Shown here: positions 18,402 through 45,656 of the stretch, piece by piece
Layout: the number at the start of each line of letters is the position of its first letter
How positions within the stretch are numbered: the first letter of the stretch is position 1
Source: Promethearchaeota archaeon
GTDB lineage: Archaea; Asgardarchaeota; Lokiarchaeia; Sigyniarchaeales; SOKP01
Direction: 5' to 3'
NCBI GenBank assembly: GCA_019058245.1
Contig: JAHPZJ010000028.1
Location: 1-64,000, forward strand
Length of the DNA stretch: 64,000 nt
Program-made: the position numbers and the translations under genes
Notes under the pieces: model-generated
The model's input: the letters and a program-made list of their open reading frames with translations, nothing else
Database searches by the model: none
What the model was told of the DNA's origin: nothing

Positions 18402-18869
18402 TTATAAATTAATTATAGGAGCTTGACATTTGAAACAGTCTTTGGCTCCACGATAATTAATAGTACCACACTCTGGACATATATTTCTATTTTCAACCTT
18501 TTCAATCCATTTTTCTGTTCCAACCTCGCGCCAAATAGGTATTTCTCTCATCATGACCTGCTTGCCTTCTGGACTGGGCCAATTTTCTATAATATCACAA
18601 GGAAATCCATCACATTGACAGCAGCTTTCTATGTTCTTATCTTTTACGCAATTTTTTATAGAGCAAGTTTGACAGAATGGAAATATGATATCATCAGATA
18701 GACATCCTGTGCAAGCAATATCTTCAATAGTATTAGCGCCCCATTTCTTAAAAATAGGAAATAATTTTCTCTTAAAATCATTATCATTTGAAATATGTGC
18801 TAGATAAACCGCACAAACTCCGCAATATAAACCACATGGAGATAATAATTCTTTTCTTATTTTAACCAT
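18402..18869 (-). CDS. DUF3795-family Cys-rich protein with C-terminal zinc ribbon
   Basis: PCGLYCGVC, CTGC, CSIKNC...CCQCDGFPC; CPECG...CFKC. Confidence 0.8.
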   Translation of the reverse strand: MVKIRKELLSPCGLYCGVCAVYLAHISNDNDFKRKLFPIFKKWGANTIEDIACTGCLSDDIIFPFCQTCSIKNCVKDKNIESCCQCDGFPCDIIENWPSPEGKQVMMREIPIWREVGTEKWIEKVENRNICPECGTINYRGAKDCFKCQAPIINL

Positions 18870-18905
18870 ATCAGATCCCTGCTAATTGATAATTTTTTAT
18901 CAATA

Positions 18906-20711
18906 TTAATTGTTTGTCATCATATCATAAGTGTTTTTTACTGATTTACCTGAAACCCATTCATTTATAAGAATAAATTTTTGAACTAATTCATTTGCAT
19001 TTTTTGGTAATTCTTCTTTAAATTCTATGTATCTTGGAACCATAAAATAAGCCAAATTTTGCTGTAGAAACATACAAAACTCCTTATAGGTTATTGAAGC
19101 TCCTTTTTGAATAACAGCACATATTTTTATATCTTTTTCTGAGGAATCTTTATCAGGAACCTCAAAAACAGCACTTTCGACTATTAGTGGATGTGAATTT
19201 GCTACAATTTCGATGTTTACCGCAAAAAACATCTCTTTTTCTCTGAGAATCATATCAGATCTCCTTCCTAAATAGTATACGAAACCTTGAAGATCTATAT
19301 ATCCAAAATCACCTGTTAAAACCCATCTATCTTCACCTATTCTTGTAACAGTCTCCTCCTGTAAATTATAATATTCAAGTTCAAAAGGAAGTTTTGTTCT
19401 AGCACAGATTTCACCAACATGATCTCGTCCAGGAGGCAACTCATTTCCGTCTAAATCAACAATTTTAATTTCAACACCCCGAGCAGGTTTTCCAACAGAA
19501 CCAATTTTACCACCTTTAGAACCAACAATATTAATAGTAAAACCAATACCCTCGACTAAACCCCACATTTCAATTATATGAATCCCAAATCTCCTTTCAA
19601 AAGGTTCCCATATTTCTTGTAAAGCTCCAGCTCCTATGGCATATTTTATTGAATGATTTCTGTCATTTTTTGAGGGCGGCTGATTTACTAAGTTCATTAG
19701 GTGTGCTGCATAATAAGTAAAACCATCAGGTTTGTATTTTTCGACATCTTTCCAAAATGTTGAAATATTGAAGTTTTCAGCAACAATAATTGAACCATTA
19801 TAATACATAATTGGAATTATCAAGAAATATCGTTCTAATCCTTGAAATAATGGTAAAGGACAATAAAATTTGTTTGAGTCACTACCGAATCCTAAATGTT
19901 CTAATTGATTTCCAATACTAATTCCTGAAAGAGCAAAATAATTTCTATATATTACACCTTTTGGTTTTCCTGTCGTTCCTGATGTATAAGATATTTCAAG
20001 AGGATCATAACTATAGATATGAATATTAGGACTATCTGAATTTTTAGATAAGATTTCGGAAAAGTTTGCATATTTCCTTGCGTATTTAAAATCAATAGGA
20101 GCATTAAAAAGATAGATTTTGCGTATTTTTTTCAATTTTTCATAGATTTCTTCTACATTTTTAAAATATTTATAATCTATAATTAATATTTCAGAATTAC
20201 TATTTCTCAACACATATTCTAATAAATCCCCTTTAAACAAGTAACTTAATGGTACAAACATGTTACCCGTTTTTGCTATACCAAACCAACAAAAGAGAGC
20301 TTCTGGACAATTTGGTAATAACATGGAAATATGAGAATTCTTTAATTTTAATTTTTTAATTTGTTCTATAAGTCCATTGGCTATCTGATTTGAGATTGAA
20401 TTGACCTCTTGATAGGAAAAAATTTTATCTTTATAATATAGAAAAGGTCTATCTTTATTCACTAGTGCTTTACTTTCTATGAGATTTGCTATGGTGGCCG
20501 CCTCAATATCATAAACTTTTGTGAGATCACTTAGATTATATACCTTTCGAATTTCTAAGCTCTCACCTTTTAATTCTATCATTACTTCTTCTTTATCTCT
20601 AAAAGGAAAAGAGCTGTCTCTAACTATCTTATTTGGTATATAGACCCAATATGTGGAATATTTAGGATTACCCGATTTTTTTTCCGAAATCTTGCCCTTA
20701 GCAATTTTCAT
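18906..20711 (-). CDS. AbrB/SpoVT-like domain fused to a CaiC-like AMP-binding (acyl-CoA ligase) domain
   Basis: N-terminal YWVYIPNKIVRDSSFPFRDKEEVMIEL; YTSGTTGKPKG, TGDFG, GRRSD present; several C-terminal motifs degenerate. Confidence 0.75.
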   Translation of the reverse strand: MKIAKGKISEKKSGNPKYSTYWVYIPNKIVRDSSFPFRDKEEVMIELKGESLEIRKVYNLSDLTKVYDIEAATIANLIESKALVNKDRPFLYYKDKIFSYQEVNSISNQIANGLIEQIKKLKLKNSHISMLLPNCPEALFCWFGIAKTGNMFVPLSYLFKGDLLEYVLRNSNSEILIIDYKYFKNVEEIYEKLKKIRKIYLFNAPIDFKYARKYANFSEILSKNSDSPNIHIYSYDPLEISYTSGTTGKPKGVIYRNYFALSGISIGNQLEHLGFGSDSNKFYCPLPLFQGLERYFLIIPIMYYNGSIIVAENFNISTFWKDVEKYKPDGFTYYAAHLMNLVNQPPSKNDRNHSIKYAIGAGALQEIWEPFERRFGIHIIEMWGLVEGIGFTINIVGSKGGKIGSVGKPARGVEIKIVDLDGNELPPGRDHVGEICARTKLPFELEYYNLQEETVTRIGEDRWVLTGDFGYIDLQGFVYYLGRRSDMILREKEMFFAVNIEIVANSHPLIVESAVFEVPDKDSSEKDIKICAVIQKGASITYKEFCMFLQQNLAYFMVPRYIEFKEELPKNANELVQKFILINEWVSGKSVKNTYDMMTNN

Positions 20712-20732
20712 TTTAAAATTTTTTAAAAAAAA

Positions 20733-20766
20733 TTTACTACTGTAAATTAATTATTCCTAACGTAAA
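20733..20766. promoter_or_regulatory. Palindromic operator TTTAC-N4-GTAAA plus a degenerate second copy
   Basis: TTTACTACTGTAAA at 20733-20746 and ATTCCTAACGTAAA at 20753-20766, 22-55 nt upstream of the 20711 start. Confidence 0.6.
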
Positions 20767-20793
20767 AATAAATCTTATTATTTTTTAATATTA

Positions 20794-22800
20794 CTATTTT
20801 AAAGGTATCTTATCATATTCTTGTTTTAATAGAGGGAATTTGTCAAGATTATAATGAGGAAAATAAAGAGAAAAAGTATATTCCTTGTGAAATAGTGGCG
20901 ATGTTGCAATTTCTCTATATTTTATTTCATGAGCAATTTTATTCGCAATATTTCTCTGCTCAATATCCTTGATAAACATTTGTGCACCAATTCCAGCGGC
21001 ATTTCCAATCTGGAAAATCTTACTTTTATCGACCTCAGGAAATAATCCTATAAAAGCGGCATTCTCTTTATTGATGTACGTTCCAAAACCACCTGCTAGA
21101 ATAATTTGATCTAAAGACTCATTGCTTTTATCTTCCATTTCAAGTAATATATTAGCTGCGCTTAAAAATGCGGCCTTTGCTAATTGAACCTGATTAATAT
21201 CTTTCTGACAGATTGATATTTCATTAATATTAGTATTATTACTATTTGCCTCAAATTGTTCAATATCCCACTCTTCTTTATATAAGATATATTGATATCC
21301 ATCTTCTTTTTTTATAACACGATGATGATTCATAATTTCTTCTGATTTAGTATTGAATTTTCCTGCTCGTGTTATAATGTTTAATTTCAGCAATTCGGCT
21401 ATAGTATCAATTAATCCTGAGCCACATATTCCTAATGGGACTATATTTCCTATTACTCCAATTGTAGGTTCTAAAGTATCCTTATCTATAGTCACTGATT
21501 CAATTGCACCCTCAGAACCTCGCATTCCGTGTGAAATATGGGCACCCTCGAGTGCTGAACCTGCAGCACAAGACCCTGTAACTAATCCTGTGTTATTCCC
21601 TATGACAAGTTCTCCATTAGTTCCAATATCAATTAAGAGAGTATATTTATCATATGAATAGATTTTAGATGAGATTATACATCCGATTGTATCAGTTCCT
21701 ACATAACCTGCTATAACCGGTGGAGAATAAACATTTACATTTGGATTGCATATTATTCCTAGTTTATTAGCAGTTACATTAATTGGGGCTTTAAATACAG
21801 GAGGAAAAGGTGATGTGGCTAAAAATTGCGGAGAAATTCCAAAAAATATATGATGCATTCCTGTATTTCCTACGATCGAAATATCTTTCAAACATGAAAC
21901 GGATATATTAGCTTTGCTACAACATTCCTCAATGATTTGATTGATAGCACTAACAATCAAGTCTTTAGCTTTTTGAATTGCATCGTTCTTTACAATATAT
22001 GTAATTCGTGAAACTACATCTTCACCGATGGCCACTTGAGGATTCAGCATTGCTGAAATTGCGACAATTTCTCCTGTTTTTAAATAAATTAAATAACCAA
22101 CAATAGTGGTAGTTCCAATATCGACAGCTAATCCAAAAATTTCCTTGCTTTTATCTCCGGCATCAACATCATAGAGGGTCCAGTTATCTTCCATAGAGAG
22201 CTTTCTAAAGTGACTTGTAACCTCACCATTGTCTGCTCTCATGATATGTGGTAATCTTTGAGTAATAGAATGTAAAATATCATCTACATGAAATGTTGGT
22301 TGATCTTCCTTTATGTTATAAGTATTGCTATTTTTTATTATACTCTCAAATAAACCAGACAAATCATTTCTAGGATTATTTAAATCTGCAGGAGTAATCT
22401 TAGATACTTGAGAAGAAATTACAGGTTGGAGCTTCTCAGTCTCTTTTATTCCAAGAGTCTCTAAACCAGCATCAACCATAATTCTTGTTCCTCTCGAAAT
22501 TAGAGAGTCGGTTAAAAAGACTCTTAAATCTCCAAAAATTCTTGTTTGACATGCTAACCTAAAACCTTCTGATATTTTTTGGCTACCTAAAATTTTTCGT
22601 TCTTGTTCTGTAGGTTCAGAAATTTTTGGATTAGGATCTAAAACACGAATTAGACATTTTCCACACGTTCCCTTACCAGCACATAATGCACTCATAGCAA
22701 AATTCAATGCTAAAAGTGATTCATATACTGTAGAACCTTCTTTAACATTCGTTCGTTTAGATATTGGTTCTAATATAAGCTTAATTCTCTCATTTGTCAT
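20794..22800 (-). CDS. Reductive activator of corrinoid protein (RACo/DUF4445, ASKHA ATPase with N-terminal 2Fe-2S domain)
   Basis: CAGKGTCGKC...RLACQ; VDIGTTT, GEDVVSRI, IDIGTNGE, CAAGSALEG, GICGSG, LAGGFG, GNAAG. Confidence 0.9.
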   Translation of the reverse strand: MTNERIKLILEPISKRTNVKEGSTVYESLLALNFAMSALCAGKGTCGKCLIRVLDPNPKISEPTEQERKILGSQKISEGFRLACQTRIFGDLRVFLTDSLISRGTRIMVDAGLETLGIKETEKLQPVISSQVSKITPADLNNPRNDLSGLFESIIKNSNTYNIKEDQPTFHVDDILHSITQRLPHIMRADNGEVTSHFRKLSMEDNWTLYDVDAGDKSKEIFGLAVDIGTTTIVGYLIYLKTGEIVAISAMLNPQVAIGEDVVSRITYIVKNDAIQKAKDLIVSAINQIIEECCSKANISVSCLKDISIVGNTGMHHIFFGISPQFLATSPFPPVFKAPINVTANKLGIICNPNVNVYSPPVIAGYVGTDTIGCIISSKIYSYDKYTLLIDIGTNGELVIGNNTGLVTGSCAAGSALEGAHISHGMRGSEGAIESVTIDKDTLEPTIGVIGNIVPLGICGSGLIDTIAELLKLNIITRAGKFNTKSEEIMNHHRVIKKEDGYQYILYKEEWDIEQFEANSNNTNINEISICQKDINQVQLAKAAFLSAANILLEMEDKSNESLDQIILAGGFGTYINKENAAFIGLFPEVDKSKIFQIGNAAGIGAQMFIKDIEQRNIANKIAHEIKYREIATSPLFHKEYTFSLYFPHYNLDKFPLLKQEYDKIPLK

Positions 22801-22902
22801 ACAAAAACATCATATTTTGGTTAATTCTCTTAATAAAACAGAATTTTACTTTATTATAAATTTGTTAAAATAAAAAAAGTTCAATGGGGTGTTAAGGATA
22901 TT

Positions 22903-23577
22903 TTAATCCCTTAACCAATTATCAATAATATCAACACCTTGTAAAGCGTCTGTAGCATATGCATCTGCGTTTGTCTCTTCCGCGATTTCAGGTGATACTG
23001 AAGCACCTCCCAAAATCACTTTTATTTTTGATGCCAATTCTCCATCTTTTAATAAATTCATGGCTCTCTTTATAGCTGGTTCTGCTGAAGAAAGTAGGAA
23101 AGAAATGCCAACAACTTTTACATCTGGTTGTTGAGCTACTTCTTTAAATTTTTCAGGACTTACATCTGTTCCAAGGTCAATAAATTCCATACCATAAGAC
23201 TTCATTAAAGCAATTAATATACTTTTACCCAAATTATGAATATCACCTTCAATTGTTCCTACGACAACTTTTCCATTGTAATTCCTACTTTCTGCCAAAT
23301 CAACTCTATTTTCCTCATCAATACAGAGAACCTCGCCCTCTAGGGCTTCAGCTGCTAAAATTAGCCCCATATCTCCCGATTCATCTAATCCTTCTAGGAT
23401 TCCTTTTTTAACTATTTCGATTATTGGTACTTTAGCATCCATTGCTTGTCTTATTGCTTCTTTCATCGAAAAAAAGTCAAGTGAAGAAACAGCTTCAATA
23501 ACATTATTGAGATAATCAATATTATCCCTTGATTTTTTTTTATCTTTTATTACAATTGCTTCTTCCATTATTCTCAT
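22903..23577 (-). CDS. Methyltransferase cognate corrinoid (B12-binding) protein
   Basis: VVVGTIEGDIHNLGK (DxHxxG), DLGTDVSPEKF, VILGGA. Confidence 0.88.
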   Translation of the reverse strand: MRIMEEAIVIKDKKKSRDNIDYLNNVIEAVSSLDFFSMKEAIRQAMDAKVPIIEIVKKGILEGLDESGDMGLILAAEALEGEVLCIDEENRVDLAESRNYNGKVVVGTIEGDIHNLGKSILIALMKSYGMEFIDLGTDVSPEKFKEVAQQPDVKVVGISFLLSSAEPAIKRAMNLLKDGELASKIKVILGGASVSPEIAEETNADAYATDALQGVDIIDNWLRD

Positions 23578-23608
23578 TTCCTCCTTACTTTCTTAATAAT
23601 TAAAATTT

Positions 23609-24394
23609 TTATACTACAAAAACAATGCCATGCCAAACAACAAATGGAATTGATTCATCTGGATGTTCCGGATTAATGACATATGGTGCCTTTTCGCCAC
23701 ACTTTACCGCGGTAGCAAAACTATCTACTCCACATGCCTCTAATGCTGGTCGAGCTCGTAAATATTGTCGACACATTTCACCGTTAAGTGTAGGACATGT
23801 TGGTATTTTTTTCTGTTGCATTAAATCCTTGAAATATTCTGGTGAAAAAAATCCACACCCAACACAAGGACCTCCTTTAAATCCCATCGCAAGATAATAT
23901 CCTAGGTATGTCGCTTCTCCCTCAATCATTCCAACCATCTGATTTAATAAGTTAACATCTCCTTGAACCCCTAGAAGAATACTAGGGAAAACATGGTTCT
24001 TTTTTGGGGGATAAAATGATACTAAAATAGCATGTTTATAGCAACTAATAATTTCTCTCATTTGATCGGTGGTTGGAGAATGTGGTGGACAATTTATACT
24101 CGTTCCGAAACCAAAACATATAGGAATTTGACATTTCCAACGTACACGTGGATCTATTACAATTTTGTCTGTTGTTATTAATTTCGCATGACCAGAAGCA
24201 TCTATTTTTGATTTTTTGATTAGTTCATCTATGATTTTATTAGAACGATCTAAAAGTTCATTAAGAACCTCTTCATCAGCCTCAAACTTTATTGGAGAGG
24301 GTGGTCTGTCTTTTTTTATTGGTAATAATCTTCTCCATTTAAAAGAGATTTTAGACCATTCTTTGTCAACTTCAGGTATTACTTTCTGTGCCAT
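23609..24394 (-). CDS. DUF2284-family metal-binding protein
   Basis: RWKCQIPIC...CPPHSP, GGPCVGC, RPALEACGVD. Confidence 0.8.
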   Translation of the reverse strand: MAQKVIPEVDKEWSKISFKWRRLLPIKKDRPPSPIKFEADEEVLNELLDRSNKIIDELIKKSKIDASGHAKLITTDKIVIDPRVRWKCQIPICFGFGTSINCPPHSPTTDQMREIISCYKHAILVSFYPPKKNHVFPSILLGVQGDVNLLNQMVGMIEGEATYLGYYLAMGFKGGPCVGCGFFSPEYFKDLMQQKKIPTCPTLNGEMCRQYLRARPALEACGVDSFATAVKCGEKAPYVINPEHPDESIPFVVWHGIVFVV

Positions 24395-24463: not shown

Positions 24464-24477
24464 TTTACGTACGTAAA
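24464..24477. promoter_or_regulatory. Perfect palindrome TTTACGTACGTAAA (putative operator)
   Basis: 14-bp perfect palindrome 70 nt upstream of the DUF2284 start. Confidence 0.65.
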
Positions 24478-24550: not shown

Positions 24551-24564
24551 TTTACTTACGTAAA
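24551..24564. promoter_or_regulatory. Second operator copy TTTACTTACGTAAA
   Basis: One mismatch to 24464-24477. Confidence 0.6.
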
Positions 24565-26106: not shown

Positions 26107-27556
26107 CAGAAAAGCTCAAGAATACAGTTCCCTTTAGGGAGATGATGAATTGAGTATGAAAAGAAAATCACTAAATTCTTATCCACTTCTCATTTTTAAT
26201 TTACGGTGTATTATCATTAGAAAAATGAAGCTAACACAAAAGATTAGGATATTCCCCTCTGAAAAGCAAGAACTCCTTCTTTGGATCTTATCGGAGAAAT
26301 GCCGCCTCCTATATAATTTTGCGTTAGCGGAACGAATGGAAAATTGGCAAAAGAATAAGGATCTTCCACGAGAAAAACGCCACTATGTTAATTATCTTAT
26401 CCAATCAAGAGCATTACCCGGATTCAAAGAAAAATATCCCGAATATAAATGGGTATATTCAAAGGTTCTCCAAACAATCCTTAAAAAACTCGATGGAAAC
26501 TATAAATCCTTCTTTGCTCTATGGAACAAGGGAGATAAAGATGCAAGACCCCCACGATTTAAAGGGAAGAACTATTTCACCACCCTTTGTTATAATCAAT
26601 CTGGCTTTAAATTACAGGAGAATTCAATCATGTTCTCTCATAAACATCCTTCGAATATCATACTTGAATTTGAACTTCCCTCTCATCTCATTCCTCAAGG
26701 AACTATTAAGCAAGTAGAACTTATTCAGTCTGATAAGAGATGGTATATTTCCCTCACATATGATCTCAAAGTCCCTAAATATTATGATAATCATTCTTAT
26801 CAAGCATTTGATTTAGGAATAAGTCAGACTGTAGGGGTAAACCTTTCTGGAAACTCAGTACAATTCACTCACAGAAGAGCAGACCTCTATTGGAAAAAAA
26901 AGATAAAGGAAGTACATTCAAAACGAGATCATTGTAAAAAATACAGCAATAAATGGTATTGGTATCATTCAAAACTGCTTCGAATGATTAAAAAATGCTC
27001 TTATCAGCTGAAAGATTTCCAGCATTGGCTTTCAAACCAAATTGTATCTCATACTAAAGCGAACACGATTATTGTTGGAGATTTAAAAATAAAACAGATA
27101 GCTCAAAAGAAGAAAGGAACGGGTAATGCTAAAAAGAATAGGATAAGTAACACACTCAACCATTCGGTTCACAACACAGGCTATTTGTCACGATTTACCG
27201 AATTCTTAACCTACAAAGCAGAAAAAAGAGGTAAAAAAGTAATAAGAATTGACGAATCGAAGACTACAAAAGCCTGCTGTAAATGTGGAAAGCTCGAAAA
27301 GAGGGCAATTTTCGAGAGAAGTATTACTTGTGATTGTGGAAATCGTATTGACCGAGATCTCAACTCAGCAATCAATATCATGATACGTTTTTTGTCAGAA
27401 AAACACAAATTCGATTTCTTATCGCACGAATCCTCCGTGAACGAGGAATCATTCCTAAAACAATGGAATGGTTTTCTACGACATACAGACCAACCCGTAC
27501 TAGAAGCGGTTGTGCACTCGTAGGAAGCCACAGCCTTTAGGCTGTGTGTAGTTCAC
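26107..27556 (+). mobile_element. IS200/IS605-family element with tnpB only (IS1341-like, non-autonomous)
   Basis: Left-end hairpin CTCAA...TCCCTTTAGGGA...TTGAG preceded by TTTAT; right end GAAGCCACAGCCTTTAGGCTGTGTGTAGTTCAC ending at 27556; no tnpA; left boundary is approximate. Confidence 0.8.
26225..27523 (+). CDS. tnpB: RNA-guided endonuclease TnpB
   Basis: KIRIFPS...CRLLYNFAL, PPRFK, AFDLG (RuvC-I), IIVGDL / IDES, CCKC...CDC zinc ribbon, DRDLNSAINI (RuvC-III). Confidence 0.92.
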   Translation: MKLTQKIRIFPSEKQELLLWILSEKCRLLYNFALAERMENWQKNKDLPREKRHYVNYLIQSRALPGFKEKYPEYKWVYSKVLQTILKKLDGNYKSFFALWNKGDKDARPPRFKGKNYFTTLCYNQSGFKLQENSIMFSHKHPSNIILEFELPSHLIPQGTIKQVELIQSDKRWYISLTYDLKVPKYYDNHSYQAFDLGISQTVGVNLSGNSVQFTHRRADLYWKKKIKEVHSKRDHCKKYSNKWYWYHSKLLRMIKKCSYQLKDFQHWLSNQIVSHTKANTIIVGDLKIKQIAQKKKGTGNAKKNRISNTLNHSVHNTGYLSRFTEFLTYKAEKRGKKVIRIDESKTTKACCKCGKLEKRAIFERSITCDCGNRIDRDLNSAINIMIRFLSEKHKFDFLSHESSVNEESFLKQWNGFLRHTDQPVLEAVVHS

Positions 27557-38012: not shown

Positions 38013-38894
38013 TTATAGCCATTCAGCGTTAAGAGGTTTTCTAGCAGGTATTCTATAATAATGAGCTTTTGGGTATCCTATTGCTAATGTGTATCCAACA
38101 ATATGGTTTATTGGGAGTTCTACAATTTTTCTTATCGATCTTAAAATAGAGAAGAAAAAAGTCATATATCCTAAAGAACAAGTACCTAATCCTAATGTCT
38201 CAGCAGCTAGCATAATCTGACAAGCTGCTAAGGAACAATTTTCTTTTAATGCCAATGATGCCTCAGGGGAATGAATTATGATAATTTCTGCATCCCAATG
38301 CCATTCCTCTCTACCACGTTCTATCCTTTTTAACATCCTTTTAAAGAATGGAATGATTTCTTCGAGGCTACTTACAAATTGTGGGGGAAAGGATGTCTCC
38401 AAGGTTTTTCTTTTATGAGGATCTTCAAACGTTTCTATTATTTCTTTAATCTGATTGTTTATTTCATTAGATAACCTATTAAGTTTTTCACGATCTTGAA
38501 CAATAGTAAAATAAACATTTTCTTCATTTTTAGCTGTAGCAGAATATCTCCCTGCTACGTTTAATATTTTCTCAATTAATTCTTTTGGAACAGTTATATC
38601 TTTAAATTGTCTTCGAGACCTCCTTATTCGAAGAAGGTTAGATAAAGATTCAAAAGAAGATAAATATTCCTCGGTGGGAACATCTTTAAGAATTTCATCT
38701 TTATGAATTTTAAGCTTAATAGCATTAACTGGACAAACCGCAGCACATTTTCCACACTCAATACAAAATTCATCTGCTTCATCATTAATACTTAAAGTAT
38801 CTGAATCAAAATCATAATAATTACACTCATTTACACAAGCTTTACATTTAGTGCAAGATTTAATATCTACAATTATTTTAGAATTTTCTAACAT
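38013..38894 (-). CDS. Ferredoxin-nitroreductase fusion
   Basis: CTKCKACVNEC, CIECGKCAAVCP; RRSRRQF; LAAETLGLGTC. Confidence 0.88.
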   Translation of the reverse strand: MLENSKIIVDIKSCTKCKACVNECNYYDFDSDTLSINDEADEFCIECGKCAAVCPVNAIKLKIHKDEILKDVPTEEYLSSFESLSNLLRIRRSRRQFKDITVPKELIEKILNVAGRYSATAKNEENVYFTIVQDREKLNRLSNEINNQIKEIIETFEDPHKRKTLETSFPPQFVSSLEEIIPFFKRMLKRIERGREEWHWDAEIIIIHSPEASLALKENCSLAACQIMLAAETLGLGTCSLGYMTFFFSILRSIRKIVELPINHIVGYTLAIGYPKAHYYRIPARKPLNAEWL

Positions 38895-44498: not shown

Positions 44499-45656
44499 CT
44501 AAAAGGATTTTAAGGGGTATACTCCAAATTTGTTTACAGCGTCAATCATCCATTCTAAACGTTTAGGTGATATAGTTGGATGAAAATTAGCAGGAGAAAT
44601 TAGGAATCCACCCCCATGACCCATTGCTGATATTGCGTCTTTTACTGCTTGTTCCACTTCCAATTTTGATGCATCTACTAAAATATATCTTGTATCTATA
44701 TTGCCGGAGAGACATAATTTATCCCCAACATTTTTTTTTACATAAATAGGATCAACGAGAGGAGGCTCAAGGCATTGAAGACCATCAAATCCTGATTCAA
44801 CTATAAAATCTAGAAGATCTGTTATATCTCCATCAGTATGTAAGATATATTTACCTTCCCACTCATGTATCGCATCTGAAACTTCTTTATAGCAAGGAAG
44901 TAAATATTTATGGAAGTATTTTGGATTAATCATTGGACCATTTCTCTGATCTATATCTCCACCCTCTAGAAATATTTTAGCTCCACAATCAGCATAAGCC
45001 TTGAAAACAGTTAAGGTAAAGTCAGTGCAAAAGCGAAAGCGTTCTTCAATTAATTGAGGATCATTTTTAAGAGCACGGGCAAATGAAGCCATTCCCATTC
45101 CCTGCCATACAGGGGGAAAAACTGAAGTAAGGGCATTTTGAGCAAAAATACAAATCTTTTCTTTAATATCACGGCACTTTCTAAAAACGCCCTTATAAAA
45201 TTTCTTAGCTCTTCTATATTCTTCTTTCAAATCAGGTTTAGGGTATGCTTCCCAATCTTCTCGATTCCTAATATATCCATCATAATAATCAGGATAAGGA
45301 TTTCCATCTATATTTCTCAATTTATGTCTTTTGCCAAAGATATCGGTCATCTCACTTCGACTTTCAAGAATAAAAGGAATATATTGGATGCCAATCCCAT
45401 CAAAACCTATTTTATTAGCTGCTCTAATAGTTTTTGCAAACACAGAGATTTCAATATCATCTAATATTTGATTAATCCTTTCAATCCATTCATCTGGATA
45501 TTTTTCTTGCATCTCATCAAAGACATCAAAGGCAGTTTTTTCTAGTTTTCCTAAAATCATATCTGCAACATTTCCATCAATATTTATTGTATGAGTAGGA
45601 ATTCTATCAGGCTCTTCAAGGTTTAATGCAGTCTAAATTCTTTCAAAACTATCCAT
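44499..45656 (-). pseudogene. Uroporphyrinogen-decarboxylase-family (MtaA/CmuA-like) protein interrupted by TAG at codon 8
   Basis: MDSFERI*TALNLEEPDRIP continues in frame into the 353-aa ORF (HTDG, LSGNID, GGGFLISP). Confidence 0.7.

Follow-up and report, generated by a model that had tools for sequence, protein, structure and literature searches.

Five closely spaced genes on the minus strand (18402-24394), encoding a DUF2284 protein, a corrinoid protein, a RACo-type activase, a ligase-like protein, and a DUF3795 protein, were analyzed in a 64,000-nt stretch of DNA from a Promethearchaeota archaeon of the class Lokiarchaeia (contig JAHPZJ010000028.1, positions 1 to 64,000; hereafter, the window). 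The lead protein of this cassette, DUF2284, had been proposed from the letters of the window (hereafter, the sequence-only reading) to stand in place of the methyltransferase of a corrinoid methyl-transfer operon. We conclude that DUF2284 is probably not the missing methyltransferase. With modest confidence, we favor its being an accessory protein that acts on the corrinoid carrier, either by relaying electrons or by processing and loading the cobamide. This explanation is preferred because of the place of DUF2284 in complete gene clusters of other lineages, its predicted fold, and its core residues, which are unchanged in members with no carrier nearby.

The cassette and the methyltransferases of its genome

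The source assembly (GCA_019058245.1) comprises 3.09 Mb in 31 contigs, has a low GC content of about 30%, and is 76% complete. Proteins were assigned by profile searches against Pfam and NCBIfam, and Pfam matches were considered at an E-value of 0.01. The lead gene (23609-24394, minus strand, as all genes of the cassette) encodes a 261-aa long form of DUF2284, which matched PF10050 over residues 72-239 with 93 bits against a cut-off of 25. PF10050 was its sole Pfam match, no membership in the MtaB, MttB, URO-D, MtaA, pterin-binding, or MtrH families was found, and the NCBIfam matches covered only the DUF2284 parts of fusion models. The next gene, 31 nt further on (22903-23577, 224 aa), encodes an MtaC/MtbC-like corrinoid protein (Pfam B12-binding, 65.9 bits). 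Its DxHxxG His-on motif is intact and was read as GDIHNLG in translation; the NCBIfam matches to pyl_corrinoid, MtbC, and MtgC were all under their cut-offs.

After a gap of 102 nt follows the gene of a RACo-type ATP-dependent reductive activase (20794-22800, 668 aa), in which Fer2, RACo_linker, RACo_middle, and RACo_C_ter were matched (E 7.5e-79), with an N-terminal [2Fe-2S] ferredoxin domain and an ASKHA C-terminal domain. Its best NCBIfam match was AcsV-like (437 bits, under the AcsV cut-off of 800), and a single PF14574 match in the 76% complete assembly indicated one RACo copy. The ligase-like gene (18906-20711, 601 aa, 82 nt after RACo) contains Pfam AMP-binding and AMP-binding_C domains and, as read in translation, an AbrB-like extension at the N-terminus. 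The last gene, after 36 nt, encodes a Cys-rich DUF3795 protein assigned by Pfam (18402-18869, 155 aa).

The linkage on which the sequence-only reading was built, with DUF2284 31 nt from the corrinoid gene and RACo in the same cluster, was borne out by Pfam and by the coordinates. The protein that it had called a CaiC-like sensor does have an AMP-binding ligase-like part; it is not a plain CaiC, since the AbrB-like domain is fused to its N-terminus, and we consider it a candidate ligand-sensing regulator of the cassette.

No MttB, MtaB, URO-D, or pterin-type methyltransferase genes were found at 17-26 kb of the window, so the earlier statement that no methyltransferase is present holds for the cluster. 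It does not hold for the window, in which an orphan URO-D/MtaA-type methyltransferase gene (44499-45560, minus strand, 353 aa) adjoins a pyridoxal phosphate (PLP) decarboxylase gene, nor for the genome. The assembly contains four URO-D/MtaA-type genes, including the one inside the window, and two MtrH-type genes; MttB was not found in the whole assembly. These six candidate methyltransferases argue against DUF2284 as the missing one, and the URO-D protein of the window is a candidate partner of the cassette's corrinoid protein. There were 18 B12-binding matches in the assembly, of which three are MtaC-sized carriers. The two carriers outside the cassette (contigs C11 and C29) each lie beside a single URO-D gene and no DUF2284. 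An incomplete methyltransferase set at a carrier locus is thus the rule in this genome, and the cassette therefore shows no gap that DUF2284 must fill.

The same contig may hold another methyl-transfer locus beyond the window (G000:C28:97665-100665), where about 2 kb separate an MtrH homologue from a 531-aa protein that contains a B12-binding domain.

Neighborhoods, residues, and fold of DUF2284

Related Asgard and more distant loci were collected by a scan with one genome per species, which yielded 80 loci. The query was a narrow alignment (A2), and these first 80 loci are thus biased to long-form DUF2284; a wide alignment of the family (A1) was too divergent and had no conserved stretch usable for the scan. 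Two larger samples were used in addition: 301 genomes of Thermoproteota, with DUF2284 in 78 of them and 60 loci read for neighbors, and 301 genomes of Desulfobacterota, with DUF2284 in 119 and 40 loci read. Neighboring genes in related loci were called crudely as the longest open reading frames (ORFs). The number of loci expected to have RACo near DUF2284 was computed from how many RACo genes each of these Desulfobacterota genomes contains.

In Desulfobacterota, RACo was found within 8 kb of DUF2284 in 6 of the 40 loci against 0.315 expected, an enrichment of about 19-fold (Poisson P 1e-6, or 3e-4 when only four arrangements are counted as independent). Besides corrinoid proteins and one or two URO-D genes, the RACo-linked clusters contain CobW/COG0523 GTPases and iron-sulfur proteins resembling NfnB or NuoG. 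One such cluster reads URO-D, corrinoid protein, RACo, and DUF2284, and a second reads NfnB-like flavoprotein, URO-D, corrinoid protein, RACo, a small ORF, DUF2284, CobW-type GTPase, and URO-D. DUF2284 thus travels with complete methyltransferase sets and sits among maintenance genes, namely, those of the activase, metallochaperone, and electron carriers. This speaks against DUF2284 standing in place of a methyltransferase, as bacterial clusters already hold URO-D beside DUF2284, RACo, and CobW-type chaperones.

The CobW/COG0523 GTPases recur next to DUF2284 in the Desulfobacterota clusters (L165:14822-15781 and L170:8392-9429, where the prefix L denotes a locus) and may serve the zinc sites of URO-D as metallochaperones.

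The contexts in the 60 Thermoproteota loci were mixed. A corrinoid protein and URO-D were found within three genes of DUF2284 in three loci from Bathyarchaeia (L115, L120, and L132) and an adjacent URO-D in two loci (L117 and L127). Nitroreductase was adjacent in three loci and a ThiW-type energy-coupling factor (ECF) transporter was present in six; radical-SAM (S-adenosylmethionine), GNAT, FdhD, or SIS genes made up the remaining neighbors. One DUF2284 clade (L135-L141) is divergently oriented beside the ThiW-type ECF transporter, with its S component, two ATPases, and T component.

A different link to cobamides was observed in Syntrophobacteraceae and relatives, in which DUF2284 is fused C-terminally to a BzaC-like O-methyltransferase. 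Such fusions were present in 4 of the 40 Desulfobacterota loci (L171, L172, L181, and L184) and in 15 of the first 80 loci (within L062-L081, e.g., L065:8927-10597). They occupy the BzaC position next to a ThiC-like BzaB and the B12-radical-SAM enzyme BzaD, and the operons also include CobT, CobS, CbiL, and CbiQ. One radical-SAM gene near a fusion is itself fused to the cobamide-remodelling enzyme CbiR.

In a tree of 138 DUF2284 domains, carrier-linked members were placed in at least three separate positions (the long-form clade, a Bathyarchaeia clade, and a URO-D-linked pair). Carrier adjacency requires at least four changes on this tree, and the O-methyltransferase fusions form a clade of their own. 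The gene-neighborhood check to which the sequence-only reading had pointed therefore gave a recurrent, non-random association with B12-binding and RACo genes in several phyla, through both the Asgard synteny described below and the Desulfobacterota enrichment, and from this linkage DUF2284 belongs functionally to corrinoid systems.

Residue conservation was determined from an alignment of 40 distant members, some of which have a corrinoid neighbor and some not. C88, C93, C102, C177, C180, C200, C208, E158, and a CPP motif were invariant in all of them, and the same residues being kept in both contexts indicates that the core chemistry is independent of the neighborhood. At 50% identity, the family falls into about 2,600 clusters, and most of its members stand alone and are about 200 aa long. 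A member with the same invariant residues is present in Bacteroides thetaiotaomicron, which has no RACo, and Methanosarcina acetivorans also encodes a DUF2284 protein. The Cys pattern suggests that DUF2284 probably binds iron-sulfur or another metal. TGA codons inside two DUF2284 matches (L086 and L139) were considered as selenocysteine and rejected, being off the conserved Cys and having the look of damage; none of the 301 Desulfobacterota genomes gave a TGA-bearing DUF2284 match.

Two AlphaFold models of DUF2284 (pLDDT 82 and 86) were compared with known structures. The 50 best matches of each model all belonged to the nitroreductase superfamily, with middling scores (Z 5.9-8.7 over 121-169 aligned residues), and included BluB, the B12-binding domain of QueG, and the dehalogenase PceA. 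The top Foldseek match of the first model was the reductive dehalogenase 4ras (E 0.025). No TIM barrel was among the top 50 matches of either model; to our knowledge, all corrinoid methyltransferases are TIM-barrel proteins. The predicted nitroreductase-like fold thus argues against DUF2284 being a methyltransferase, as does the fact that most members have no corrinoid gene nearby. A PDB sequence search returned no relative of DUF2284 at E 10, nothing was found in a search of the ESM Atlas, and the modelled likeness to nitroreductases is at the fold level only.

The genome of the window contains a second DUF2284 paralogue, which is short (190 aa) and very divergent (G000:C24:84015-84587; L001:1474-2046). 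Its neighbors are a PhoU/PiT phosphate-transport pair on one side and adenylosuccinate synthetase on the other, and no cobamide gene is close by.

Conservation, regulation, and cap loss in the Asgard lineage

The order DUF2284, corrinoid protein, RACo, and ligase-like gene was kept in 29 of 29 related Asgard loci as far as their contigs reach; L048, where the contig starts only in the last codons of DUF2284, shows the same order. DUF2284 identity across the 29 loci was 65-95%. The linkage of DUF2284, corrinoid protein, and RACo is far beyond chance. The DUF3795 gene is only loosely attached to the cassette, because, of the related loci, just the two closest (L003 and L048) have it in this position. 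Outside this group, two more distant archaeal loci (L032 and L033, 53-57% identity) retain only the DUF2284-corrinoid pair, and two Dehalococcoidia loci (L034 and L035, 50% identity) have DUF2284, a 75-aa ORF, the corrinoid protein, and an MtaA/CmuA-type URO-D. In the next relatives, also Dehalococcoidia (L036-L039), the long form of DUF2284 is present and the carrier is lost; here, DUF2284 comes after a 776-aa double CoA-transferase III, with a SAM methyltransferase and a major facilitator superfamily (MFS) transporter facing it.

Three TTTAC-N4-GTAAA palindromes were found in the window against 0.2 expected. Two of them precede the DUF2284 start, one by 70 nt (24464-24477) and the other by 157 nt (24551-24564), and the third (20733-20746) lies 22 nt upstream of the ligase-like gene. 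Of the 29 Asgard loci, 24 share this placement, with one stray match in the other 150-odd loci, and the palindrome upstream of the ligase-like gene was kept in 11 related loci. From their sequence and placement, the palindromes are likely operator sites, and their being conserved and shared suggests that the cassette and its putative regulator form a small conserved regulon. A scan for bacterial signals found no terminator-like sites.

The corrinoid protein of the cassette was compared (alignment A5) with the two other corrinoid proteins of the genome and with those of Bathyarchaeia. It is missing about nine residues of the canonical cap motif (G..F..GE.FlPE), and a B12-binding_2 Pfam match was not obtained at E 0.01. 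The motif is intact in the genome's other carriers and in the Bathyarchaeia carriers beside short DUF2284; shortening was seen only in corrinoid proteins paired with the long form. In turn, about 40 residues specific to this lineage extend the N-terminus of long-form DUF2284; they include a conserved Arg- and Pro-rich motif and were modelled with low confidence. A segment gained in DUF2284 and a shielding segment lost in the carrier together suggest that DUF2284 sits on the cobalt face of the carrier.

In related genomes, several further genes were observed near the cassette. Often, a pair of CoA-transferase family I subunits, a nitroreductase of 263 aa, and extra AMP-ligases lie upstream (L005-L017, L023, L030, and L032), and methylmalonyl-CoA mutase and MeaB are near the cassette in L024 and L032. 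All of these are absent at the corresponding place in the window, where two nitroreductase-family genes further away (38013-38894 and 57560-58387) cluster with the nitroreductase that adjoins the cassette in the related genomes. An IS605-type TnpB (OrfB, with a Cas12f1-like TNB domain) is encoded at 26150-27523 of the window, 1.7 kb from the cassette.

Possible roles of DUF2284

As an accessory protein, DUF2284 would belong to a separately regulated module of corrinoid-dependent methyl transfer, consisting of the carrier plus its maintenance. The corrinoid protein would carry a methyl group on cobalt, and RACo, with ATP and its [2Fe-2S] cluster, would bring inactive Co(II) to Co(I). Cys-rich and with a predicted nitroreductase-like fold, DUF2284 would be the third protein, which relays electrons or processes and loads the cobamide, and in Asgard archaea it probably docks on the upper face of the cap-reduced corrinoid protein. 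The enzymes that load and unload the methyl group would be encoded elsewhere, as the URO-D and MtrH homologues. We infer the metal or cluster binding of DUF2284, its docking, and its redox or cofactor-handling role.

A number of observations weigh against the accessory role. DUF2284 is the first gene of the operon and is immediately followed by the corrinoid gene, which is the place that substrate:corrinoid methyltransferase (MT1) genes have in methylamine operons. A ligand-type regulator of its own, with operators, fits a substrate-specific pathway better than housekeeping, and the cap-reduced carrier suggests a permanently docked partner, perhaps the catalytic one. Many DUF2284 genes have no cobamide gene nearby. 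The fold matches to nitroreductases are middling (Z about 8), and hhalign of DUF2284 against the nitroreductase profile gave a probability of 0.3%, i.e., no signal. Iron-sulfur binding was guessed from the Cys pattern alone. In the literature searched, DUF2284 was named only in tables, with no biochemistry, and no mention of COG5423 was found.

The operon lead position, the reduced cap, and the ligand-type regulator thus keep a catalytic role for DUF2284 alive, at a chance that we put as small but real, and in the Asgard lineage such a role is conceivable because the corrinoid cap is cut down there. In its broadest form, which we hold as a tentative alternative only, long-form DUF2284 and the cap-reduced corrinoid protein would make up a new two-subunit cobamide enzyme, either a non-TIM-barrel corrinoid methyltransferase or a split relative of RdhA/QueG, acting on a carboxylate sensed by the AbrB-ligase-like regulator.

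The first of these forms, in which DUF2284 is a new metal-dependent, MT1-like methyltransferase stably paired with the cap-less carrier and the regulator senses a methylated carboxylate substrate, is unlikely in our judgment. It would account for the order of DUF2284 and corrinoid gene (with the 31-nt gap), which is kept in all Asgard loci and in L032-L035, for the reduction of the cap and the N-terminal segment of DUF2284 in the same lineage, and for the dedicated regulator with its conserved operators. The sets of L034, L035, and Bathyarchaeia (DUF2284, corrinoid protein, and one URO-D) leave one methyltransferase slot open. MtaB binds a substrate-activating metal, and the invariant Cys and Glu of DUF2284 could do so as well. 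However, complete bacterial clusters hold two URO-D genes besides DUF2284, and the genome's own C11 and C29 loci manage with one URO-D and no DUF2284. The predicted fold, which is nitroreductase-like rather than a TIM barrel, also disagrees with this role, as do the residues that stay unchanged in members without a nearby corrinoid protein and in the RACo-less B. thetaiotaomicron.

It is considerably less probable that a soft metal, metalloid, or chalcogenide (Se, S, or As) is bound at the Cys site of DUF2284 and presented to methyl donors, so that the cassette would methylate or demethylate such species via the corrinoid protein. NCBIfam models of ArsM/DUF2284 and MbdU selenoprotein fusions match the DUF2284 part (PMC13188914), and the related type 1 mlp corrinoid clusters are tied to methyl-sulfur and methyl-selenium metabolism (PMC10418091). 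However, none of the conserved Cys was seen to be replaced by a selenocysteine codon in the loci examined, the cassette has no selenium or arsenic genes, and DUF2284 is unnamed in the mlp paper (PMC10418091).

We likewise regard as very doubtful that a split nitroreductase-fold B12 enzyme, analogous to RdhA/QueG, is made up of DUF2284 and the cap-less corrinoid protein and carries out a reductive reaction with iron-sulfur clusters and a substrate pocket supplied by DUF2284. The predicted fold does resemble the B12-binding cores of RdhA, PceA, and QueG, the Cys content is high, the cap is reduced, and nitroreductase genes recur beside DUF2284. However, RACo typically belongs to cycles between Co(I) and methyl-Co(III), flavin nitroreductases score at least as high as RdhA and QueG among the structural matches, and DUF2284 travels with URO-D methyltransferases in other phyla. 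The carrier also retains the His-on DxHxxG mode, which RdhA and QueG do not use. That the adjacency is meaningless, being the mere inherited synteny of one lineage, is scarcely credible: the 29 Asgard loci are for the most part closely related (65-95% protein identity), but the linkage recurs in separate DUF2284 clades and four phyla and is enriched about 19-fold near RACo in Desulfobacterota.

Four-component corrinoid methyltransferase systems are known as MtaABC or MttBC/MtbA with RamA in methanogens, as OdmABCD, the O-demethylase of Acetobacterium dehalogenans, and as MtoABCD in Methermicoccus shengliensis. Like them, the cassette clusters an MtaC-type DxHxxG protein with an ATP-dependent activase, and the genome has URO-D and MtrH types; unlike them, it has no methyltransferase in the cassette, a shortened carrier cap, DUF2284 as the lead gene, and an AbrB-ligase fusion as the putative regulator. 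RACo acts with the corrinoid iron-sulfur protein (CoFeSP) in Carboxydothermus hydrogenoformans, and the activase of the cassette has the same four-domain architecture; it adjoins a small MtaC-like carrier and not CoFeSP. Type 1 mlp clusters, which are widespread in anaerobes, are defined by the URO-D enzymes Mlp2 and Mlp3 (Kountz and Balskus, PMC10418091). The cassette shares with them a corrinoid protein, a Ram/RACE activase, and the lack of an H4folate methyltransferase in the cluster, but it has no Mlp2/Mlp3 URO-D.

Among nitroreductase-fold cobalamin proteins (RdhA 4ras and 4uqu, QueG 5d6s, CblC/MMACHC, and BluB 2isj), the DUF2284 models matched QueG, PceA, and BluB with Z 6.1-7.2. DUF2284 is Cys-rich as are RdhA and QueG, and like the nitroreductase-fold cobalamin proteins in general it is associated with cobamide genes. 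It differs from them in having no sequence-profile signal, and its Cys spacing is not that of a ferredoxin (CxxCxxCxxxCP). BzaC of the anaerobic benzimidazole (bza) operon was reportedly described by Hazra et al. in 2015. In Syntrophobacteraceae, the O-methyltransferase in the BzaC position bears the C-terminal DUF2284 domain; unlike these fusions, the DUF2284 of the cassette stands alone, belongs to another clade, and adjoins a carrier gene instead of biosynthesis genes. The additions made here are the Desulfobacterota enrichment, the composition of complete bacterial clusters, the bza fusion, the family tree, and the conserved operators.

By its enrichment near RACo and corrinoid genes and its fusion to an enzyme of the B12 lower ligand, DUF2284 becomes a concrete candidate for a missing maintenance step, that is, the supply of cobamide to MtaC-type proteins or of electrons to RACo/RamA. 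The Asgard set, with its cut-down-cap carrier, extended DUF2284, and dedicated regulator, would provide a natural, compact three-protein test system. If DUF2284 were catalytic, it would represent a new class of cobamide enzyme.

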